Positions 4,266-54,689 of a stretch of 54,689 bases of DNA are shown in pieces. Source of the DNA: Oscillospiraceae bacterium (GTDB taxonomy: Bacteria > Bacillota > Clostridia > Oscillospirales > Ruminococcaceae); the NCBI GenBank assembly GCA_017440545.1, contig JAFSGZ010000009.1, positions 1 through 54,689 of the forward strand, in the 5' to 3' direction. Below the pieces are notes generated by a model, which was given only the letters and a program-made list of their open reading frames with translations, had not been told where the DNA came from and made no database searches. The position numbers and the translations under genes were made by a program. Position 1 is the first letter of the stretch; the number at the start of each line of letters is the position of its first letter.

Positions 4266-4523
4266 TTATACTCTTTTTTTGAGAAGTTCTATTAAAGCCT
4301 TTGAAAGCTGGTCGGGGCAGGAAGTGCCTTTACCGCGACAATCTATACCCTCAAGTCTCTCTATTGCCTCAATAACATTCATTCCCTCAACAAGTCGAGA
4401 AATTCCTTGTGTATTACCGTGACAGCCACCAATAATTTCAACACTTTTAATTATATCGCCATCAAGCTCTACATTAATTTGTCTTGAGCATACGCCGTGT
4501 GTTATATAATTGATTTTATTCAT
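4266..4523 (-). CDS. TSCPD-domain protein (TIGR03905-like)
   Basis: 85 aa. Contains ..GGCHGNTQGISRL..GTSCPDQL.. (TSCP motif). SD AAAGGAG upstream. Confidence 0.7.
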   Translation of the reverse strand: MNKINYITHGVCSRQINVELDGDIIKSVEIIGGCHGNTQGISRLVEGMNVIEAIERLEGIDCRGKGTSCPDQLSKALIELLKKRV

Positions 4524-4534
4524 TTTTATCTCCT

Positions 4535-4891
4535 TTATTTACAGCCCTTACAGGTTGAAAAAAGCTCTTTTATGCTTTTTGTTTTATTAACTTCAAACTC
4601 AAGCTTTAAAAGCTTGTCCACTGTATTTTTATTTACATTAATAAGGTAGGTTTTACAGCCGCTGTCCTCTCCATAGGCAATTATAGTTCTGACAGCACCA
4701 TCAATGACGCTTAAATCCTCGCCTTCAACATAGATAACCTCTATATTTTCGCCCTCAATTTTTGCAACCGAAAAGCCCTTTGTTCCTGTAAAATCAAAGG
4801 CAGAAAAAACTATATAATCCTCTTTATAATCTATTATCCCCTCACAAAGTTCCTTTGCAACAAAGGCGGGGGCTCTTTTAATCATAAGCAT
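4535..4891 (-). CDS. Hypothetical protein
   Basis: 118-aa ORF with SD AAGGAG 8 nt upstream of the ATG. No family recognised. Confidence 0.5.
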   Translation of the reverse strand: MLMIKRAPAFVAKELCEGIIDYKEDYIVFSAFDFTGTKGFSVAKIEGENIEVIYVEGEDLSVIDGAVRTIIAYGEDSGCKTYLINVNKNTVDKLLKLEFEVNKTKSIKELFSTCKGCK

Positions 4892-7264: not shown

Positions 7265-7326
7265 AAAAGCTCCTTATGTTAAAGCGGCGATAGCATAGCT
7301 ATCACCGCCTATTTTAAATTTTTGTT

Positions 7327-9369
7327 TTAGTTTTTACTTGAAGAGCTGCCCGAGCTTTCAGCTTTCTGTGATGAAACTGCAGAAGATGATGATGCGCTCG
7401 ATTCGGTTTTCTTGGAAGTTGTTGTATAAGCTGCTCTTAATTGGTCGGTGTTATCCTGAAGCAGTGTGCTTGTTTGGCTATCAAAGTTTACATTATAAGC
7501 TAAATAAACCTTATCGTTTATTCTGATTACGAGCTTTCTTACTCCTGTGCCTTCAAGCTTTAAATCCCACTTACCTGTATCATTATATATATTTGATGTC
7601 TTAACGGTTTCACCGTCTAATGTTGCCTTTATTTCGATTTCCTCTGTGTAGAAATCGGGAATGGTGATTTGCATTGAATAGGTGGTTTTTTGTTTTTCGC
7701 CCGAGCTTATTTTTAAGGTTACAACGCTGCCTTGGTCTACCCAAGATTCTGCAGCAATATCCTGATAAAGCACAGTACCCTTAACCTTGTTTGAGGGAAC
7801 CTCAACAGCATCAACAGCAAGTGATTTTGCATAAAGAAGGTTGGAAGCCTGCTCTATTGTCATATCAACAACATCGGGAACCTGAACCTTTTCAATTTTT
7901 TCAACAGCTTTAAAGATTTGAATTGTAGTTGCAAGCGAAACATCTTCACCGCGTTTGGGGAAGGTTCTTACAACAAGCCCTGCTGCTACATCCTGACTTT
8001 CCTCTTGAATTTCAACCCAAGACTCAAAGCCTGCTTTTTTAATTGCATCAATAGCATCAGCAACTGTATACTCGGTTACATCGGGTACCTCGCCTTTTTT
8101 AGGTCCGCGGCTTACCCAAACCTCCATTTTATAATCCTTTGTAGTGGTACCTGCTTTTTTCTCCTGCTTAAAGATTACACCTTCGGCATATTCATCGCTA
8201 AAAGCAGTTTGAGGATTTGAAAAGTCAAATTCCTTATAGGTGTCCATAGCCTCTGTGATGGTCATTCCCACAAAATCGGGAACCTCTACAGCCTTTGTAG
8301 GCTTAAGAATACCCGAACGGCTTACTGCAATTATAATAAAGATTATAACAGCAATTACAACTGTGGCAGTTACGCCGAGAAGAATGGGAATTAAGGGGGA
8401 TTTCTTTTCTTCTTCCTCATCCTCTTCATTTACGACATTTTTATTGTCTTTAACATCGTTTAGAGCGGCACCCGAAACTGCGCCAAAGTGGCGGGTTGGC
8501 ATACCATCATCGTTTAAATATTTATATGAGAACTGAATACTGGGGTTTCTCTTAAACTCATCAATATCGCGAAGCATTTCTGCGGCGCTTTGATATCTGA
8601 CCTTTGTATTCTTCTGCATAGCTTTTAAAACAATTTCCTCGAGGCCTTCAGGAATTGTGTCATTAAGCTCTCTGGGATGGCGAGGTGTTTTACTAACCTG
8701 CATCATAGCAACCGAAACTGCAGCATCAGCTTCAAAGGGAAGCTGACCTGTGAGCATTTCAAAAAGCATAACGCCGACAGAATAAATATCTGTCTTTTGG
8801 TCGGTTACATCGCCGCAGGCTTGCTCGGGGCTTATATAGTGAACCGAGCCTATAACCTTACCCGAAATGGTTCTGGTTTCAAAGCGTGCAAAGCGTGCAA
8901 TACCAAAATCCATCACCTTTATTGTGCCGTCCATTAAAAGCATAATATTTTGCGGCTTTATATCTCTGTGAACTATTCCTTTATCGTGAGCGTGCTGAAG
9001 TGCTCTTAAAATCTGAACGACATAGTGTACAGATTCCTTCCACTTTAAAATACCCTCGCGCTCTATGTATTCCTTTAAGGTAATACCGTCGATATATTCC
9101 ATAACAATGGCAGGTGCATCACTGCTGTAAAGCACATCGTAAACCTTTACAATGTTGGGATGCGAAAGACCTGCTATTGCTTTAGCTTCATTTCTGAAGC
9201 GACGTAAAAATTCCTCGTTCTGAATATATTCGTCTTTTAAGATTTTAACGGCAACTGTGATGTCGTCAATAAGGTCCTTAGCCTTGTAGACATTAGCCAT
9301 TCCGCCAATGCCAACCTGCTCCTGAATTTCATAACGGCCTCCAAGCCTTACTCCTATATACTTATCCAT
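7327..9369 (-). CDS. prkC: Ser/Thr protein kinase with PASTA repeats
   Basis: Hanks kinase motifs (HRDIKPQN, DFGIA), one TM segment, then repeated PASTA-like units (VPDFVGM.., VPDVTEY.., VPDVVDM..). ATG at 9369 is preferred (AGGAG 8 nt upstream) over the track's GTG at 9378. Confidence 0.9.
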   Translation of the reverse strand: MDKYIGVRLGGRYEIQEQVGIGGMANVYKAKDLIDDITVAVKILKDEYIQNEEFLRRFRNEAKAIAGLSHPNIVKVYDVLYSSDAPAIVMEYIDGITLKEYIEREGILKWKESVHYVVQILRALQHAHDKGIVHRDIKPQNIMLLMDGTIKVMDFGIARFARFETRTISGKVIGSVHYISPEQACGDVTDQKTDIYSVGVMLFEMLTGQLPFEADAAVSVAMMQVSKTPRHPRELNDTIPEGLEEIVLKAMQKNTKVRYQSAAEMLRDIDEFKRNPSIQFSYKYLNDDGMPTRHFGAVSGAALNDVKDNKNVVNEEDEEEEKKSPLIPILLGVTATVVIAVIIFIIIAVSRSGILKPTKAVEVPDFVGMTITEAMDTYKEFDFSNPQTAFSDEYAEGVIFKQEKKAGTTTKDYKMEVWVSRGPKKGEVPDVTEYTVADAIDAIKKAGFESWVEIQEESQDVAAGLVVRTFPKRGEDVSLATTIQIFKAVEKIEKVQVPDVVDMTIEQASNLLYAKSLAVDAVEVPSNKVKGTVLYQDIAAESWVDQGSVVTLKISSGEKQKTTYSMQITIPDFYTEEIEIKATLDGETVKTSNIYNDTGKWDLKLEGTGVRKLVIRINDKVYLAYNVNFDSQTSTLLQDNTDQLRAAYTTTSKKTESSASSSSAVSSQKAESSGSSSSKN

Positions 9370-51367: not shown

Positions 51368-52006
51368 ATGAATCAGAAAAAAATAGGTGAATTCATTGCA
51401 CTTAAAAGAAAAGAAAAGGGCTTAACACAAATGGAGCTTGCAGACATACTTTTAATAAGCAACAAAACGATTTCCAAATGGGAGTGCGGCAACGGGCTTC
51501 CCGAAGTTAGCCTAATGCTTCCGCTATGTAATGTGCTTGGCATTTCGGTAAATGAGCTTTTATCGGGCGAGGAGCTTGAAAGCAGTTATAAGGAAAAAGC
51601 CGAAGAAAATTTAATTAGTCTTATTGAAGACAAACAAAAAAATCGCCTTAGCACAAATGCACTTTTAATTTGGCAAACTGTTTGTTTAATAATTTCAATT
51701 ATTATCTGGCTTATTTTATTTGCCGACAGCAATGTGTATCAGCTTGGACAGACGCCCACACCGCTTACCCTTTGTTATCTCACAGTCGGATTTGTTTTAA
51801 TTCACCTGACGGTGTCGGTTATAGGCTATGCCATTATAAAACATAGCAGCAAATTAGTTCTTACTGCGCTTTTGTTTGCATCATTAGCCTGCCTGTTAAT
51901 TAGCCTTGGCTACAAGACCGCTTGGCTTATTATCCCCTCTTTTATAGGCGTTGTAATATGTTTTATTTTAAGTCTGCTAAGTCTATTTAAAAAGAAAAAG
52001 AGCTAA
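51368..52006 (+). CDS. XRE-family HTH regulator with C-terminal transmembrane segments
   Basis: Has ..LTQMELADILLISNKTISKWECG.. (HTH_3) followed by about 4 hydrophobic spans. Confidence 0.75.
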   Translation: MNQKKIGEFIALKRKEKGLTQMELADILLISNKTISKWECGNGLPEVSLMLPLCNVLGISVNELLSGEELESSYKEKAEENLISLIEDKQKNRLSTNALLIWQTVCLIISIIIWLILFADSNVYQLGQTPTPLTLCYLTVGFVLIHLTVSVIGYAIIKHSSKLVLTALLFASLACLLISLGYKTAWLIIPSFIGVVICFILSLLSLFKKKKS

Positions 52007-52032
52007 CCGAAAATTTCGGTTAGCTCTTTTTT
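51991..52032. terminator. Bidirectional terminator hairpin
   Basis: GAGCTAACCGAAA/TTTCGGTTAGCTC palindrome (52000..52026) with A- and T-runs. It overlaps the XRE gene stop. Confidence 0.65.
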
Positions 52033-52579
52033 ATTCTTCACCGATTAACGTAACCTTGGTGTATGGATGCTTTAAGGCGGGGACTAATTTATTTATTAAA
52101 TCCTCAACCGAGATTTTAACGCAGGATGTGTTTACACAAGGGTGAATACCAACTGTTTTTTGCTTTAATATATCCTCGTCGATTAAAAGACGAACGCAGT
52201 CCTCATTATCATATTTAAGTCCCATAATGCTCACAGAGCCGGGTGTAATATTTAGGTGTTTTTGCATATGCTCGGCATTTGCAAAAGACAGACGTGCAAC
52301 CCCAAGCTGAGAGGAAAGCTCTTTTGTTTTAAACTTTTTGCCGTCAGGAATTAAAAGCAGATAAAACTGTGTTTCCTGACGATTACATAAAAACAGGTTT
52401 TTGCAAATATTGGTGTCAAGCGCTTTATCTATCTCCTGACACGCTTCCATTGTCATAGCGCTTTCGTGGTCGGCACTTATGTAATCTATATTAAGCTCGT
52501 CCAAAAGCCCATAGCTTGAAATTTCCTTTTGCTCTCTGCCCTCTAAATTATTAGGCTTTCCGTTATAAACTGTTACCAT
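52031..52579 (-). CDS. YbaK/ProX-family (prolyl-tRNA-synthetase-associated) editing-domain protein
   Basis: 182 aa. Has ..KNLFLCN.. and ..TPGSVS..HPC.. in the pattern of ProX-like deacylases. Confidence 0.7.
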   Translation of the reverse strand: MVTVYNGKPNNLEGREQKEISSYGLLDELNIDYISADHESAMTMEACQEIDKALDTNICKNLFLCNRQETQFYLLLIPDGKKFKTKELSSQLGVARLSFANAEHMQKHLNITPGSVSIMGLKYDNEDCVRLLIDEDILKQKTVGIHPCVNTSCVKISVEDLINKLVPALKHPYTKVTLIGEE

Positions 52580-53049
52580 TTTTTCTCCTCCGTTATTTTA
52601 TCGATTAGGGCTGTACAGCCGCTTAAAATGTCATTATAGGCAGATGTAAAGTCGCCGCTGTACCACGGGTCTAAAACATCGCGCTCGCTACCATTAAAAG
52701 AAAGCAGCTTATACATTTTACCCTCTGCCTCATCTCCTAAAATATAGCGCATATTTCTTAAATTTTTGTCATCCATACAGACAAACATATCATAAAGCGG
52801 CAAATCCTCTTTTTTAAGCCTTACTGATCTTTTATCATCAGGGTAAATGCCGTTTTTTTGAAGCTCTCTTAAAGCGGGCGGATAAATGGGGTTGCCTACA
52901 CCTCTGTATATTTCCTCATCGCTCGTAGCAGAGGACGAAACCTTAAATTTACCCTCAAGCCCTCGTTTTTTTATTAAATCTTTGAATATAAACTCTGCCA
53001 TAGGGCTTCGGCAAATATTGCCGTGGCAGACGAACATTATTTTTATCAT
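52573..53049 (-). CDS. Low-molecular-weight protein tyrosine phosphatase
   Basis: MIKIMFVCHGNICRSPMAEF has the CX5R(S) P-loop, and a DPWY-type Asp loop is present. Its first 11 codons lie inside the left direct repeat. Confidence 0.85.
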   Translation of the reverse strand: MIKIMFVCHGNICRSPMAEFIFKDLIKKRGLEGKFKVSSSATSDEEIYRGVGNPIYPPALRELQKNGIYPDDKRSVRLKKEDLPLYDMFVCMDDKNLRNMRYILGDEAEGKMYKLLSFNGSERDVLDPWYSGDFTSAYNDILSGCTALIDKITEEKKW

Positions 53050-53052
53050 AAA
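53016..53052. repeat. Left 37-bp direct repeat (attL-like)
   Basis: TATTGCCGTGGCAGACGAACATTATTTTTATCATAAA. Matches 54532..54568 at 36 of 37 positions. Confidence 0.9.
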
Positions 53053-53224
53053 TTTTTCCTCATTTCCTTAGAAATTATAACACGAGCAAATATTATTTGC
53101 AAGATATATGCTTAAGCTTTGTTCGTTGTGGCAAGGGCACACCCCTACACCCCTCAATATTGCTTTTGTTTTACAAAAACAATATAGAATACAAATATCA
53201 ACACCACTTACGGCTCGTACAGTA

Positions 53225-53253
53225 TTGATATTTATAGCGGTGTATGATATAAT
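53225..53253 (+). promoter_or_regulatory. Near-consensus sigma-A promoter with extended -10
   Basis: TTGATA (53225..53230), 17-nt spacer, TGaTATAAT (-10 at 53248..53253). Confidence 0.6.
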
Positions 53254-53293
53254 TAATATGTTAATATTATCAATTTTTAGGAGCATGTAATAA

Positions 53294-53554
53294 ATGTACA
53301 ATCCCCGCAATTATGCAATAAGCATTGAAAAAATATTAGGTACTCCGCAATATTTAACTGGAGAAGTTGAGAATAACCCACTTTCTTTTTTATCAAGTTT
53401 CCTTGATGAAAAATATGACTCGGACGAAGCAACCGCGCAACTAATTGATTCTTTTGATGAAAAATTCTCAAAATATAAAGGTTTACCTTTAATCAACTGG
53501 GAAGAAAAAGATGCGGAACAACTGGTAAATGATTTGAGAAGAATTTTTTCATAA
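53294..53554 (+). CDS. Hypothetical small acidic protein (86 aa)
   Basis: ORF with AGGAG 10 nt upstream. D/E-rich, no family recognised. First gene of the insertion cassette. Confidence 0.55.
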   Translation: MYNPRNYAISIEKILGTPQYLTGEVENNPLSFLSSFLDEKYDSDEATAQLIDSFDEKFSKYKGLPLINWEEKDAEQLVNDLRRIFS

Positions 53555-53572
53555 TAGAGGGAGTTAATAGTA

Positions 53573-54364
53573 ATGGGCGTTTTTATTATTTTAGCTTTAC
53601 TTGCAATAGGTGCATGTTTTATTGGTAGTTTGGGCTGCAAAATTGATGCAAAATCAAAAGAGAAAACAAACAAACTAATCAATTCTTGGCAAGACGATTG
53701 GTTTGGAAAATTGCAAACCGCTTGTATAGAAAAAGGTATTGATACCCCACCAAAAAGCATTTTAGACAAAGAGGAAATTTGGGTAGCGTATAATGGTAGC
53801 AGAACGCATTCGCCAGGCTATCTATGGGAAGATGGCAAACATATAATTTTTTGTAATGATGCTTTAAACCAGTATGATCGTCCTTTTACGGATAATATGT
53901 TGATAATTCCGTTTGAAGACATTCTTTTCTATACAAAAGATGGAAATATATCTTATACCAACAAAATAATAAACGAAGGCAAAAACATCTCCGTATCGGG
54001 TGCAATAGTAGGTGGTTTAATTGCGGGAGATGCAGGTGCTATAATCGGTGCTGGAAAAAACGCTAATAAAATTCAAAATGTAACGGTTTCGCACGATGAT
54101 ATACACACCTTTATCTATTACAATGCGGAAAATGATTGCGTGAAAATTGCAGATGTAAAAGGTCAAAAATTCTATACATATATCTTACAATTATTGCCTC
54201 ACAAAGAATATAATTATGTCAATAATTTGAATTCAAATACCACCAATGTCGAAAATGATTCAGTTAAGCAATCATTAGAAAAGTTGAAAGAATTATATGA
54301 CAATAACCTGATTGATGAAGCAGAATATAAAGCAAAAAAAGAACAATTACTAAATCAATTATAA
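53573..54364 (+). CDS. Membrane-anchored protein with a glycine-zipper segment and a C-terminal SHOCT-like domain
   Basis: SD GAGGGAG upstream. N-terminal hydrophobic segment MGVFIILALLAIGACFIGSLGC. GAIVGGLIAGDAGAIIGAG glycine zipper. C-terminus ..LEKLKELYDNNLIDEAEYKAKKEQLL.. matches the SHOCT pattern. Confidence 0.7.
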   Translation: MGVFIILALLAIGACFIGSLGCKIDAKSKEKTNKLINSWQDDWFGKLQTACIEKGIDTPPKSILDKEEIWVAYNGSRTHSPGYLWEDGKHIIFCNDALNQYDRPFTDNMLIIPFEDILFYTKDGNISYTNKIINEGKNISVSGAIVGGLIAGDAGAIIGAGKNANKIQNVTVSHDDIHTFIYYNAENDCVKIADVKGQKFYTYILQLLPHKEYNYVNNLNSNTTNVENDSVKQSLEKLKELYDNNLIDEAEYKAKKEQLLNQL

Positions 54365-54384
54365 ATATGACAAAATATATAAAT

Positions 54385-54420
54385 ACAGGCACGGATTTTG
54401 TTCCGTGCCTGTTGGCTTTT
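54385..54420 (+). terminator. Rho-independent terminator of the cassette
   Basis: ACAGGCACGGA-TTTTGT-TCCGTGCCTGT followed by TGGCTTTT. Confidence 0.75.
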
Positions 54421-54497
54421 GTATCATATTCAGGGCTTTTCTATATTTTTTAAAAGTAGTAAAAAAGTAGTAAAATTGCAAAATATCTTTGCAAGAC

Positions 54498-54523
54498 GTG
54501 GTATATAGTGGCATAGATTGGCA
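54498..54523. repeat. Three 10-bp-phased GTGGCA-like words
   Basis: GTGGTA at 54498, GTGGCA at 54508, TTGGCA at 54518. GTGGCA occurs again inside each direct repeat (53023, 54539) and at 53128. Confidence 0.6.
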
Positions 54524-54526
54524 AGT

Positions 54527-54565
54527 TTATTTATTGCCGTGGCAGACGAACATTATTTTTGTCAT
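54527..54565 (-). pseudogene. Displaced 5' stub of the LMW-PTP gene (12 codons)
   Basis: ATG at 54565 preceded by AGAGG. Reads MTKIMFVCHGNK then a stop as the repeat ends. Confidence 0.7.
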
Positions 54566-54568
54566 AAA
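54532..54568. repeat. Right 37-bp direct repeat (attR-like)
   Basis: TATTGCCGTGGCAGACGAACATTATTTTTGTCATAAA. One A/G difference from the left copy. Confidence 0.9.
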
Positions 54569-54689
54569 AACCTCTAATGTATTGTTTTAAAAATAAGGGG
54601 CTCTTTGTTTGGAGCTGTGTCTTTTATTTCTATGCCCGAAAGATACATTTTTAATGCTTCATCAAAAAGCTTGTTATGGGATGTGTAAA

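Follow-up and report, generated by a model that had tools for sequence, protein, structure and literature searches.

A two-gene operon on a small recombinase-less insertion in an Oscillospiraceae chromosome: possible membrane-linked exclusion or defense cargo

Background

What does a pair of tightly linked genes, the first for a small acidic protein and the second for a membrane-anchored protein with a glycine zipper, do on a short piece of foreign DNA in a clostridial chromosome? This question is raised by positions 53225-54420 of contig JAFSGZ010000009.1 (Oscillospiraceae bacterium, assembly GCA_017440545.1), which we analyzed over positions 1 to 54,689 of the forward strand (54,689 nt, hereafter the window). 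A sequence-only reading of the region had seen in it a self-contained cassette of two genes, here called gene 1 (86 amino acids, aa) and gene 2 (263 aa), on horizontally acquired DNA, and had suggested a superinfection-exclusion or abortive-infection moron, a toxin/immunity pair or a toxin/antitoxin pair. It is well supported by our results that the region is a real, self-contained operon on a delimited insertion without a recombinase. Its function is considered below, with an exclusion or defense role as our tentative preference. Positions refer to the window unless a locus number precedes them, and the loci used for comparison are designated by L numbers.

A delimited insertion with an empty site in a related genome

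The insert comprises 1,479 bp (53053-54531) and carries the two-gene operon as its sole cargo. A repeat search detected a bracketing 37-nt direct repeat, the copies of which (53016-53052 and 54532-54568) are 36/37 identical and contain the final leader bases and codons 1-11 of a low-molecular-weight phosphotyrosine phosphatase gene (LMW-PTP). This target gene is intact and encodes 158 aa (52573-53049, minus strand; Pfam LMWPc, E 9e-27). The site is empty in L051, a contig of a metagenome-assembled genome (GCA_964308605.1); the comparison was made through its phosphatase orthologue, which is 96% identical, and the exact phosphatase of the window has no database record. Window positions 51857-53052 are 97.9% identical to L051 and positions 54532-54689 are 96.8% identical, and the two flank alignments overlap in L051 by exactly 37 nt. 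Therefore, 53053-54531 is foreign DNA. The GC content of the insert is 31.8% versus 39.1% in the rest of the window, and GC3 is 24-26% in the cargo genes versus 39-44% in neighboring genes. The empty site and this difference in composition together bear out the earlier statement that the cassette is self-contained and horizontally acquired.

On the cargo strand, gene 1 and gene 2 are the only open reading frames (ORFs) of at least 60 aa in the insert. The other ORFs of at least 60 aa are not conserved, namely three antisense ones (53068-53310, 53277-53471 and 53311-53769) and one of 60 aa that spans the promoter and leader. The longest antisense ORF (152 aa, 53311-53769) was rejected as a gene, being an unconserved side product of ORF scanning. 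The whole window yielded no integrase-like sequence, and outside the insert it is ordinary chromosome. An Rfam scan of the insert and its sibling elements returned sub-threshold noise only.

The cargo operon

The operon promoter, TTGATA-17-TATAAT with an extended TG (53225-53253, plus strand), matches the sigma-70 consensus at 11 of 12 positions and is the strongest site of this kind in 52000-54689. Of 2.7-kb sequences with matched composition, about 17% contain a match of this quality by chance, and therefore the reality of the promoter rests on conservation: TTGNTN-17-TATAAT is found at a similar distance 5' of gene 1 in the loci showing this region (L029, L017/18 and L007/9). An inverted repeat with 15-nt arms of 87% complementarity (53190-53204 and 53222-53236) overlaps the -35 box. 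Its upstream half is conserved in L029, and the repeat is a possible operator. With this repeat over the -35 box, the constitutive expression assumed in the sequence-only reading is not established.

Gene 1 (53294-53554, plus strand) has AGGAG 10 nt before its ATG, and gene 2 (53573-54364, plus strand) has GAGGGAG at 9 nt. The intrinsic terminator (54385-54412, plus strand) consists of an 11-bp stem with 7 G-C pairs and a T-rich tail, with a fold of -22.3 kcal/mol (z = -5.06 versus shuffles). In homologous loci a terminator follows the cassette at the same place, sometimes with a different sequence, and it is kept in L001, L057 and L058. Promoter, terminator and the two ORFs with Shine-Dalgarno sequences are thus all present where they had been described. 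Both genes are under purifying selection, with dN/dS of 0.05-0.18 for gene 1 and 0.06-0.14 for gene 2.

Gene 1 encodes a small acidic protein of an orphan family

The gene 1 protein has a pI of 4.4 and contains 16 D/E versus 9 K/R residues. It has no match in Pfam, NCBIfam or PADLOC, in agreement with its earlier description as an acidic protein of no recognized family, and the best PHROG hit is non-significant (E 0.1). Pfam and NCBIfam searches gave no helix-turn-helix (HTH), ribbon-helix-helix (RHH), AbrB, Phd-type or other DNA-binding domain. The AlphaFold2 (AF2) model is a five-helix bundle (pLDDT 93.9), for which Foldseek found no match in PDB (best E 1.6) or BFVD (best E 2.1). PDB sequence searches with the family profiles of gene 1 and gene 2 returned nothing below E 0.2. 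Structure prediction had been proposed for both proteins; it placed gene 2, as described below, and left gene 1 without a fold match.

The family comprises 24 clusters at 50% identity among 1.84 billion representatives, with full-length matches of about 85-95 aa and a remainder of mostly fragments. In GTDB, a single locus was found among 185,579 species genomes. Between hosts whose phosphatases are only 54% identical, gene 1 retains 87-93% aa identity. We predict that the product is a soluble acidic five-helix protein of a tiny orphan family.

Gene 2 encodes a PH-like, glycine-zipper and SHOCT protein

Gene 2 carries a SHOCT domain (PF09851) at residues 234-260 (33.8 bits versus a cut-off of 27), which in the AF2 model forms two helices (227-243 and 249-261). 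It also matches phrog_888 over residues 84-261 (E 3e-11). Homologs with 41-77% identity have precomputed matches to PF27000 (PH_gly_zipper) and SHOCT, those to PF27000 being flagged weak where strength is reported; membership of the window protein in PF27000 is derived from these precomputed matches. This family has recently been catalogued and is uncharacterized. The earlier statement that no described system has this architecture holds insofar as no PADLOC defense model matches either gene, while the absence of any family is outdated for gene 2. PF27000, SHOCT and PHROG 888 have no assigned function, so that membership names a fold and not a role. A literature search for PH_gly_zipper or PF27000, or for glycine zippers together with SHOCT, bacterial PH domains or anti-phage activity, found nothing relevant. 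Pfam matches to GvpG and UBN_AB, below threshold and overlapping the SHOCT helix, were rejected, as was membership in a known glycine-zipper or bPH Pfam family (no match even at E 1).

The AF2 model of gene 2 has a mean pLDDT of 78.7. Its N-terminus is modeled as one long helix (2-54), composed of a transmembrane (TM) segment, the hydrophobic residues 1-22, and a juxtamembrane helix. A PH-like beta-sandwich follows (aa ~66-207), with six strands (69-134), three strands (167-196) and a capping helix (198-207), and a disordered linker (216-227) precedes the SHOCT helices. The central region, left unplaced by the sequence-only reading, is thus modeled as a PH-like domain, and a Foldseek search of PDB also points to PH/PTB domains (Sin1, Btk, Dok-5 and SSRP1), with probability up to 1.0 at an E of only ~0.02. 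The glycine-zipper segment, VSGAIVGGLIAGDAGAIIGAGKN (aa 140-162; 53990-54058, plus strand; Kyte-Doolittle 1.5-1.6), is modeled inside the sandwich as a hairpin of two helices (141-151 and 153-162) with a pLDDT of about 60. It contains over half of the invariant columns of the family alignment, namely G143, A144, G147, G148, G152, G155, A156, I158, G159 and K162. The SHOCT tail is optional across the same alignment. The general description of gene 2 as a membrane-anchored glycine-zipper/SHOCT protein is therefore supported, its membrane location being predicted.

Two forms of membrane attachment, a TM segment or an atypical lipobox, had been considered. Cys15 and Cys22 are replaced in many homologs, there is no K/R before the hydrophobic stretch, and a Lys-rich stretch follows the TM helix. 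With unconserved cysteines and no basic n-region, the N-terminus is therefore a signal-anchor TM helix; identity as a bacterial lipoprotein was rejected, and of the two forms only the TM anchor stands. The modeled protein is probably single-pass, with the N-terminus out and the bulk in the cytoplasm. This topology agrees with the predicted position of SHOCT domains, which is intracellular and membrane-proximal at the inner leaflet (PMC11237479). The hairpin helices are too short for crossing the bilayer, and a re-entrant, inner-leaflet or oligomerization role of the zipper hairpin may be inferred from the model.

Genomic neighborhoods of the two genes

Conservation of the pair in other genomes had been suggested as a check, and the pair indeed recurs in three other genomic settings (L007/L010, L008/L009 and L017/L018). 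Gene 1 precedes gene 2 in all of them, with a spacer of 12-18 nt and about 70% aa identity. A single ancestral cassette may have given rise to all loci that carry the pair.

The two genes are also found apart. Gene 1 is present without gene 2 in five settings: after a 104-aa TM/coiled-coil/Zn-ribbon protein beside a phosphatase gene (L001-6); after a 279-aa protein composed of a Zn ribbon, 2 TM segments, a coiled coil and a Zn ribbon (ZnR279; L057-61); after a 307-aa protein with 2 TM segments and a coiled coil, a module common to the 279-aa protein; before a 172-aa Zn-ribbon protein (L029); and before a 64-aa protein that is followed by a TM-anchored Mrr-type nuclease (L062). In the loci examined gene 1 is never solitary and always abuts a same-strand protein, mostly a membrane-anchored or Zn-ribbon one. 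The TM-anchored Mrr protein (L062 509-1612, 367 aa) lies two genes downstream of a gene 1 homolog with 91% identity; in the Mrr protein, a TM anchor at the N-terminus is followed by a beta-rich middle part and, at the C-terminus, an Mrr_cat/NA-iREase1 nuclease domain. Membrane-tethered Mrr nucleases are, to our knowledge, unusual. An hhalign comparison of the gene 2 family with this protein gave no homology.

In at least four settings, homologs with 66-77% identity to gene 2 have no gene 1 beside them. One adjoins a tyrosine integrase and a type II restriction-modification (R-M) system with endonuclease and methylase (L011-16), one follows a PDC-S01 gene (L025-28) and one lies directly after AbiLi/AbiLii (L053-56). 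Another, in the phage-like contig L052, is flanked by NUMOD4 and Mu-F genes and encoded on the opposite strand. Homologs are also present in IMG/VR contigs, and in human-gut contigs they lie beside a Zn-ribbon family with the motif NRGYS and a KAP-NTPase (PDC-S20). In L011, a perfect 39-nt direct repeat (7289-7327 and 7391-7429, spaced 102 nt) was observed within a 115-aa minus-strand ORF, just past the gene 2 homolog and its 79-aa downstream partner.

PH_gly_zipper genes adjoin the NRGYS Zn-ribbon family in L030, L035, L037 and L040, and each of the three possible pairs among gene 1, PH_gly_zipper and the NRGYS Zn ribbon is found linked. AbiL, type II R-M, Mrr, a DrmC-like PLD, PDC-S01 and PDC-S20 occur within a few kb in 6 contexts, which represent few independent loci and carry no background statistic. 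The Zn ribbon itself is C-terminal with a glycine-rich insert (CPKCGS.S..T.NRGYS...G..GSG.P.NVC..CGHKW), and no Pfam or NCBIfam model captures the motif. It was observed beside gene 1 or PH_gly_zipper in L001 (5813-5941), L029 (6654-6782), L057 (940-1113), L030 (8193-8378) and L037 (5614-5754). A conserved leader of ~190 nt lies 5' of the Zn-ribbon partner genes (L001 5432-5632, L058 2893-3095 and L057 76-278) and ends in a GC-rich hairpin and a U run before the ribosome-binding site (RBS). It resembles an attenuator or riboswitch platform, as judged from three sequences with one compensatory pair, and has no Rfam match.

Loss and decay affect the two genes separately. In the independent assemblies L008 and L009, gene 1 has a TAA at codon 13, while gene 2 is undamaged and encodes the same protein as in L007. 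Gene 2 has been cleanly lost from L001 and L057-61; L001 retains the gene 2 Shine-Dalgarno sequence and last codons beside an intact gene 1. The recombination joints lie at the gene borders, window position 53557 being joined to 54341/54356 in L001 and L057-61.

Possible functions of the operon

Among the explanations considered, we place first, tentatively, that of a membrane-linked exclusion or defense-type accessory module of mobile DNA with gene 1 as the soluble partner. The gene 2 protein would lie on the inner face of the membrane, its hairpin reaching into the inner leaflet, and the zipper, the PH-like domain and/or SHOCT would mediate self-association. The outcome would be either a block to phage DNA entering the cell or, on infection, a disturbance of the membrane. 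The gene 1 protein would be a cytoplasmic regulator or adaptor that docks on membrane-anchored proteins, and not an antitoxin, and gene 2 would evidently be able to work without it. We favor defense or exclusion because a constant small protein is combined with swappable, mostly membrane-anchored outputs in neighborhoods of conflict genes. The moron, exclusion or defense idea of the sequence-only reading gains indirect support from the same quarter, namely from homologs near AbiL, type II R-M, Mrr, PDC-S01, PDC-S20 and an integrase and inside phage DNA.

Several points weigh against an exclusion or defense role. The argument is one of guilt by association, and hot spots of mobile DNA also collect non-defense cargo. 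Neither protein matches a PADLOC-DB 2.0 model, even at E 1; tblastn of both proteins against GenBank phages gave no match, and no gene 1 homolog was found in IMG/VR viral contigs. If there was a single ancestral cassette, the recurrence of the pair does not represent several independent events. With hairpin helices of ~10 residues, an acidic turn and a pLDDT of ~60, membrane insertion of the zipper is uncertain. Finally, a test by the authors who described SHOCT did not support oligomerization (PMC3581485).

A bolder proposal, which we consider rather unlikely, is that gene 1 marks an undescribed membrane-linked conflict system with interchangeable, mostly TM-anchored partners, carried by a new type of non-autonomous element of 1.5-1.9 kb. 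The partners may then include the PH/glycine-zipper-SHOCT protein, the NRGYS Zn-ribbon protein, the two-TM coiled-coil protein and the Mrr nuclease, and the element may be one backbone at different chromosomal sites with target duplications of 37 to 127 nt.

If defense or exclusion is the true role, gene 2 would represent a new type of effector, in which a PH-like domain on the cytoplasmic side contains a glycine-zipper hairpin, and gene 1 a new small partner for exchangeable membrane-anchored outputs. This would also give Pfam PH_gly_zipper its first function and SHOCT more context. If neither the defense nor the mobility idea holds, the genes are ordinary accessory cargo.

The rival that survives best, still a doubtful one, is an accessory role in envelope homeostasis, in which gene 2 and the Zn-ribbon membrane proteins would form a sub-membrane scaffold under stress, like partners of the PspA network, with gene 1 as a soluble adaptor. 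Operons linked to PspA repeatedly contain membrane-proximal SHOCT and Zn-ribbon proteins, and SHOCT has been proposed as an inner-leaflet anchor (PMC11237479). Bacterial PH domains assemble into oligomeric rings that associate with the membrane (cited in PMC3581485). A hairpin too short to span the bilayer would suit a scaffold, and so would the persistence of gene 2 alone in many settings, which suggests that it is not obviously toxic. However, no PspA, LiaF, PspC, band-7 or Toastrack gene lies beside any homolog examined. Furthermore, the genes are patchy mobile-DNA cargo of foreign composition, and not core stress genes, and their recurrent neighbors are restriction, Abi and candidate defense genes.

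It is also unlikely, in our view, that the cassette holds two uncoupled morons, an autonomous gene 2 and a separate gene 1 that is merely co-transcribed with it in this lineage. The occurrence of gene 2 alone or with unrelated neighbors in at least five settings would fit such independence, as would the five settings of gene 1 without gene 2, the joints placed exactly at gene borders (53557 to 54341/54356) and the decay of one gene while the other stays intact. Against it, gene 1 is never found alone and always abuts another protein on the same strand, the pairwise linkage of gene 1, PH_gly_zipper and the NRGYS Zn ribbon extends to all combinations, and the pair has co-diverged to about 70% identity with its 12-18-nt spacer kept.

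Less probable still is that gene 1 serves the mini-element, as a regulator or as a factor that exploits a helper for maintenance or mobilization, with the membrane proteins as interchangeable adaptive cargo. Gene 1 is the constant gene of siblings with the same arms (gene 1 and gene 2 in the window, ZnR279 and gene 1 in L057-61) and the most conserved part (87-93% aa, versus 54% for the phosphatase). However, its product is acidic and all-helical, without a DNA-binding or recombinase signature. Excisionases are usually basic. Moreover, gene 1 is also present in loci without recognizable arms or repeats (L001, L019 and L029) and has decayed in L008/9, where the arms are retained.

The least likely rival, and a very improbable one, is a toxin/antitoxin or addiction pair with gene 2 as a membrane-damaging toxin restrained by the acidic gene 1 protein, which would agree with a small acidic protein directly upstream of a membrane-active-looking one on mobile DNA and with gene 1 outliving the clean loss of gene 2 (L001 and L057-61) as orphan antitoxins do, but is opposed by the two independent assemblies in which gene 1 has a premature stop codon next to an undamaged gene 2, by the 66-77% identical gene 2 homologs without a nearby gene 1 (L011-16, L025-28, L052 and L053-56), by the lack of an HTH, RHH or AbrB domain for autoregulation and by structurally unrelated gene 1 partners that include a nuclease. 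Either gene is lost independently, so there is no addiction logic, and the earlier suggestion of a toxin/antitoxin or obligate toxin/immunity pair is not sustained.

Comparison with known systems

Superinfection-exclusion morons are exemplified by Sie2009 of lactococcal P335 phages and Ltp of Streptococcus phage TP-J34. As in these systems, a small protein, here predicted to be membrane-anchored, is encoded on mobile DNA under its own strong promoter and terminator, with a composition unlike that of the host. Likewise, a phage module contains the closest gene 2 homolog, encoded on the opposite strand, and a further homolog has an integrase as its neighbor. However, gene 2 has no sequence or fold relationship with Sie2009 or Ltp, and a soluble second partner gene is present. 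Ltp, moreover, acts outside the membrane, and most of the gene 2 protein is predicted to lie in the cytoplasm.

In the RexA/RexB exclusion system of phage lambda, a soluble partner acts with a membrane effector, RexB, which is a polytopic channel. The window operon is similar in co-transcribing one cytoplasmic and one membrane protein from mobile DNA, and the combination of gene 1 with alternative membrane-anchored output proteins resembles a sensor-plus-effector logic. There is no homology, and gene 2 is predicted to have a single TM helix and a re-entrant hairpin, unlike the polytopic RexB. Furthermore, gene 2 often lacks an accompanying gene 1.

Glycine-zipper membrane proteins include the Pfam Gly-zipper_Omp/YMGG families and SlyB-type lipoproteins. 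Gene 2 shares with them a helical hairpin of GxxxG repeats attached to a small beta domain. It differs in that the zipper lies inside the beta-sandwich of a protein predicted to face the cytoplasm, that the host is Gram-positive (Clostridia) and that the protein is no lipoprotein. With PF27000, the modeled gene 2 shares a PH-like beta-sandwich, a C-terminal capping helix and an embedded glycine-zipper segment. A PH-like fold is also found in the bacterial families bPH_1-6, and bacterial PH and SHOCT domains are known to co-occur (PMC3581485). The two proteins are variants within known kinds of mobile-element cargo, and what puzzles most is how the carrier moves.

Effect of the insertion on the host locus

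In L051 the gene order is deoC, phosphopentomutase, cdd, pdp (pyrimidine-nucleoside phosphorylase), PTP and a ybaK-like gene, and the phosphatase starts 8 nt past the pdp stop. The insertion separated the phosphatase and ybaK-like genes from the deoC/phosphopentomutase/cdd/pdp operon. Upstream of the insert in the window, the 3' end of the pyrimidine-nucleoside phosphorylase gene remains (54569-54689, minus strand; 96.8% identical to L051 7877-8034). The right repeat copy (54532-54568) is the displaced original 5' end of the phosphatase (MTKIMFVCHGNK*) and is contiguous with host DNA in L051.

The first 11 codons, RBS and promoter of the phosphatase are now supplied by the insert. The left repeat copy (53016-53052), an att-like core, contains the RBS-proximal bases and codons 1-11, with an element-derived ATA at codon 2 that changes Thr to Ile (ACA versus ATA) and is the single repeat mismatch. 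Judged by the empty site, the deviating base is that of the copy attached to the gene body; therefore, the crossover occurred on the gene-body side of that base. It is predicted to lie within TTGCCG (54534-54539). A promoter scan found an outward promoter toward the phosphatase, TTGCAA-17-TATAAT with TG (53102-53074, minus strand, 10/12), and the L008 element has an equivalent one at the same end (TTGCAA-17-TACAAT). The left end of the insert thus provides a promoter, an RBS and first codons, so that the phosphatase and ybaK-like genes remain expressible. The carrier is a clean, fully delimited 1.5-kb insertion without a recombinase that splits an operon and re-supplies its downstream part with promoter, RBS and start codons.

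The mini-element and its siblings

Two blocks of the insert form a backbone that recurs with other cargo. In the left-arm block (53113-53200), positions 53116-53193 are 92% identical to the siblings in L058/L059, which have different cargo. The right-arm block (54413-54531) extends up to the repeat junction and is 85% identical to L057-L061 and about 70% identical to L008. It contains a tandem GTAGTAAAA (54456 and 54467), CTTTGCAAG (54487) and GGCATAGATTGGCAAGTT (54510). On the plus strand, GTAGTAAAA has no further copy anywhere in the window. TTTGCAAG was rejected as a significant arm motif by counts, with 14 copies in the window; only conservation in sibling elements is meaningful. The DNA pattern of the right arm had no match in metagenome or viral collections.

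In L057-L061, the cargo is the 279-aa Zn-ribbon membrane protein and gene 1, not gene 2; identity with the window is 87% for gene 1 and 85% for 54341-54539, a region that takes in the last part of gene 2 together with terminator and right arm. The L058 element is bracketed by a 127-nt direct repeat (98%; 2564-2690 and 4437-4563), which is the intergenic region upstream of transketolase, and in L057 an identical right end (~1598-1630) adjoins yet another host flank. In L007, the gene pair is bracketed by stretches of ~100 nt, 92% identical, that repeat the 5' end of a spoVT/abrB-type gene. In L008/L009, the pair lies between two diverged, truncated fragments resembling the phosphatase 5' end, and the phosphatase gene itself is absent; the right arm there is homologous to that of the window, with a tandem GTAGTA(A/C)AA, CTTTGCAA and AGTGGCATA. 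Left of the left phosphatase-like fragment, L008 2380-2500 has two tandem copies of GTGTGTAAATC, which mirror the tandem GTAGTAAA of the right arm of the cassette. This arrangement suggests a second element joined in tandem (accretion). In L017, the pair is directly downstream of rpsI. The rpsI gene is a classic integration site for integrative and conjugative elements (ICEs) as well as for integrative and mobilizable elements (IMEs) (PMC7563491).

The same right end, ...GGCATAGATTGGCAAGTT(C/T)AT..T(T/G)GCCG (window 54510-54539), adjoins three different host flanks. The target duplications vary, with 37 nt in the window, 127 nt in L058 and about 100 nt at the L007 pair locus, and the sequence common to the right junctions is T(T/G)(C/T)CG(C/T)G only. 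With one backbone at three flanks and duplications of variable length, a single fixed att site therefore does not explain the element. The mechanism may be a recombinase acting in trans on a short core or a Campbell-type re-integration of circles with captured flank DNA. The presence of this backbone at other sites with long, variable duplications raises the question of how minimal elements move.

The best available label for the carrier is a cis-mobilizable element (CIME)-like element. The CIMEs of streptococci are decayed ICEs or IMEs that keep att sites and cargo, without recombination genes, and "classical" ones measure 1.2-13 kb (PMC7563491). The insert, at 1.5 kb, is inside this range. 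Its direct repeats copy the end of a conserved host gene and are of att type at a site that is empty in a related genome (L051). It carries accessory cargo, and with two conserved ORFs only it has no integrase, excisionase, relaxase or conjugation genes. Locus L008/9 also resembles a tandem array, and the L017 pair lies near rpsI. Unlike a CIME, the element targets the 5' end of a gene and gives it a replacement promoter, RBS and start. Furthermore, its backbone occurs at three host flanks with unequal duplications, and no parent ICE or IME with a matching att site was found, metagenome and viral collections included.

Other observations in the window

Two features lie beyond the phosphatase. 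One is a gene for a 212-aa protein (51368-52006) that joins an XRE-type HTH domain to a hydrophobic membrane domain at the C-terminus, apparently a multi-pass one. The other is a perfect 18-nt inverted repeat (51995-52031), a bidirectional terminator common to this XRE-HTH gene and the convergent ybaK-like gene.

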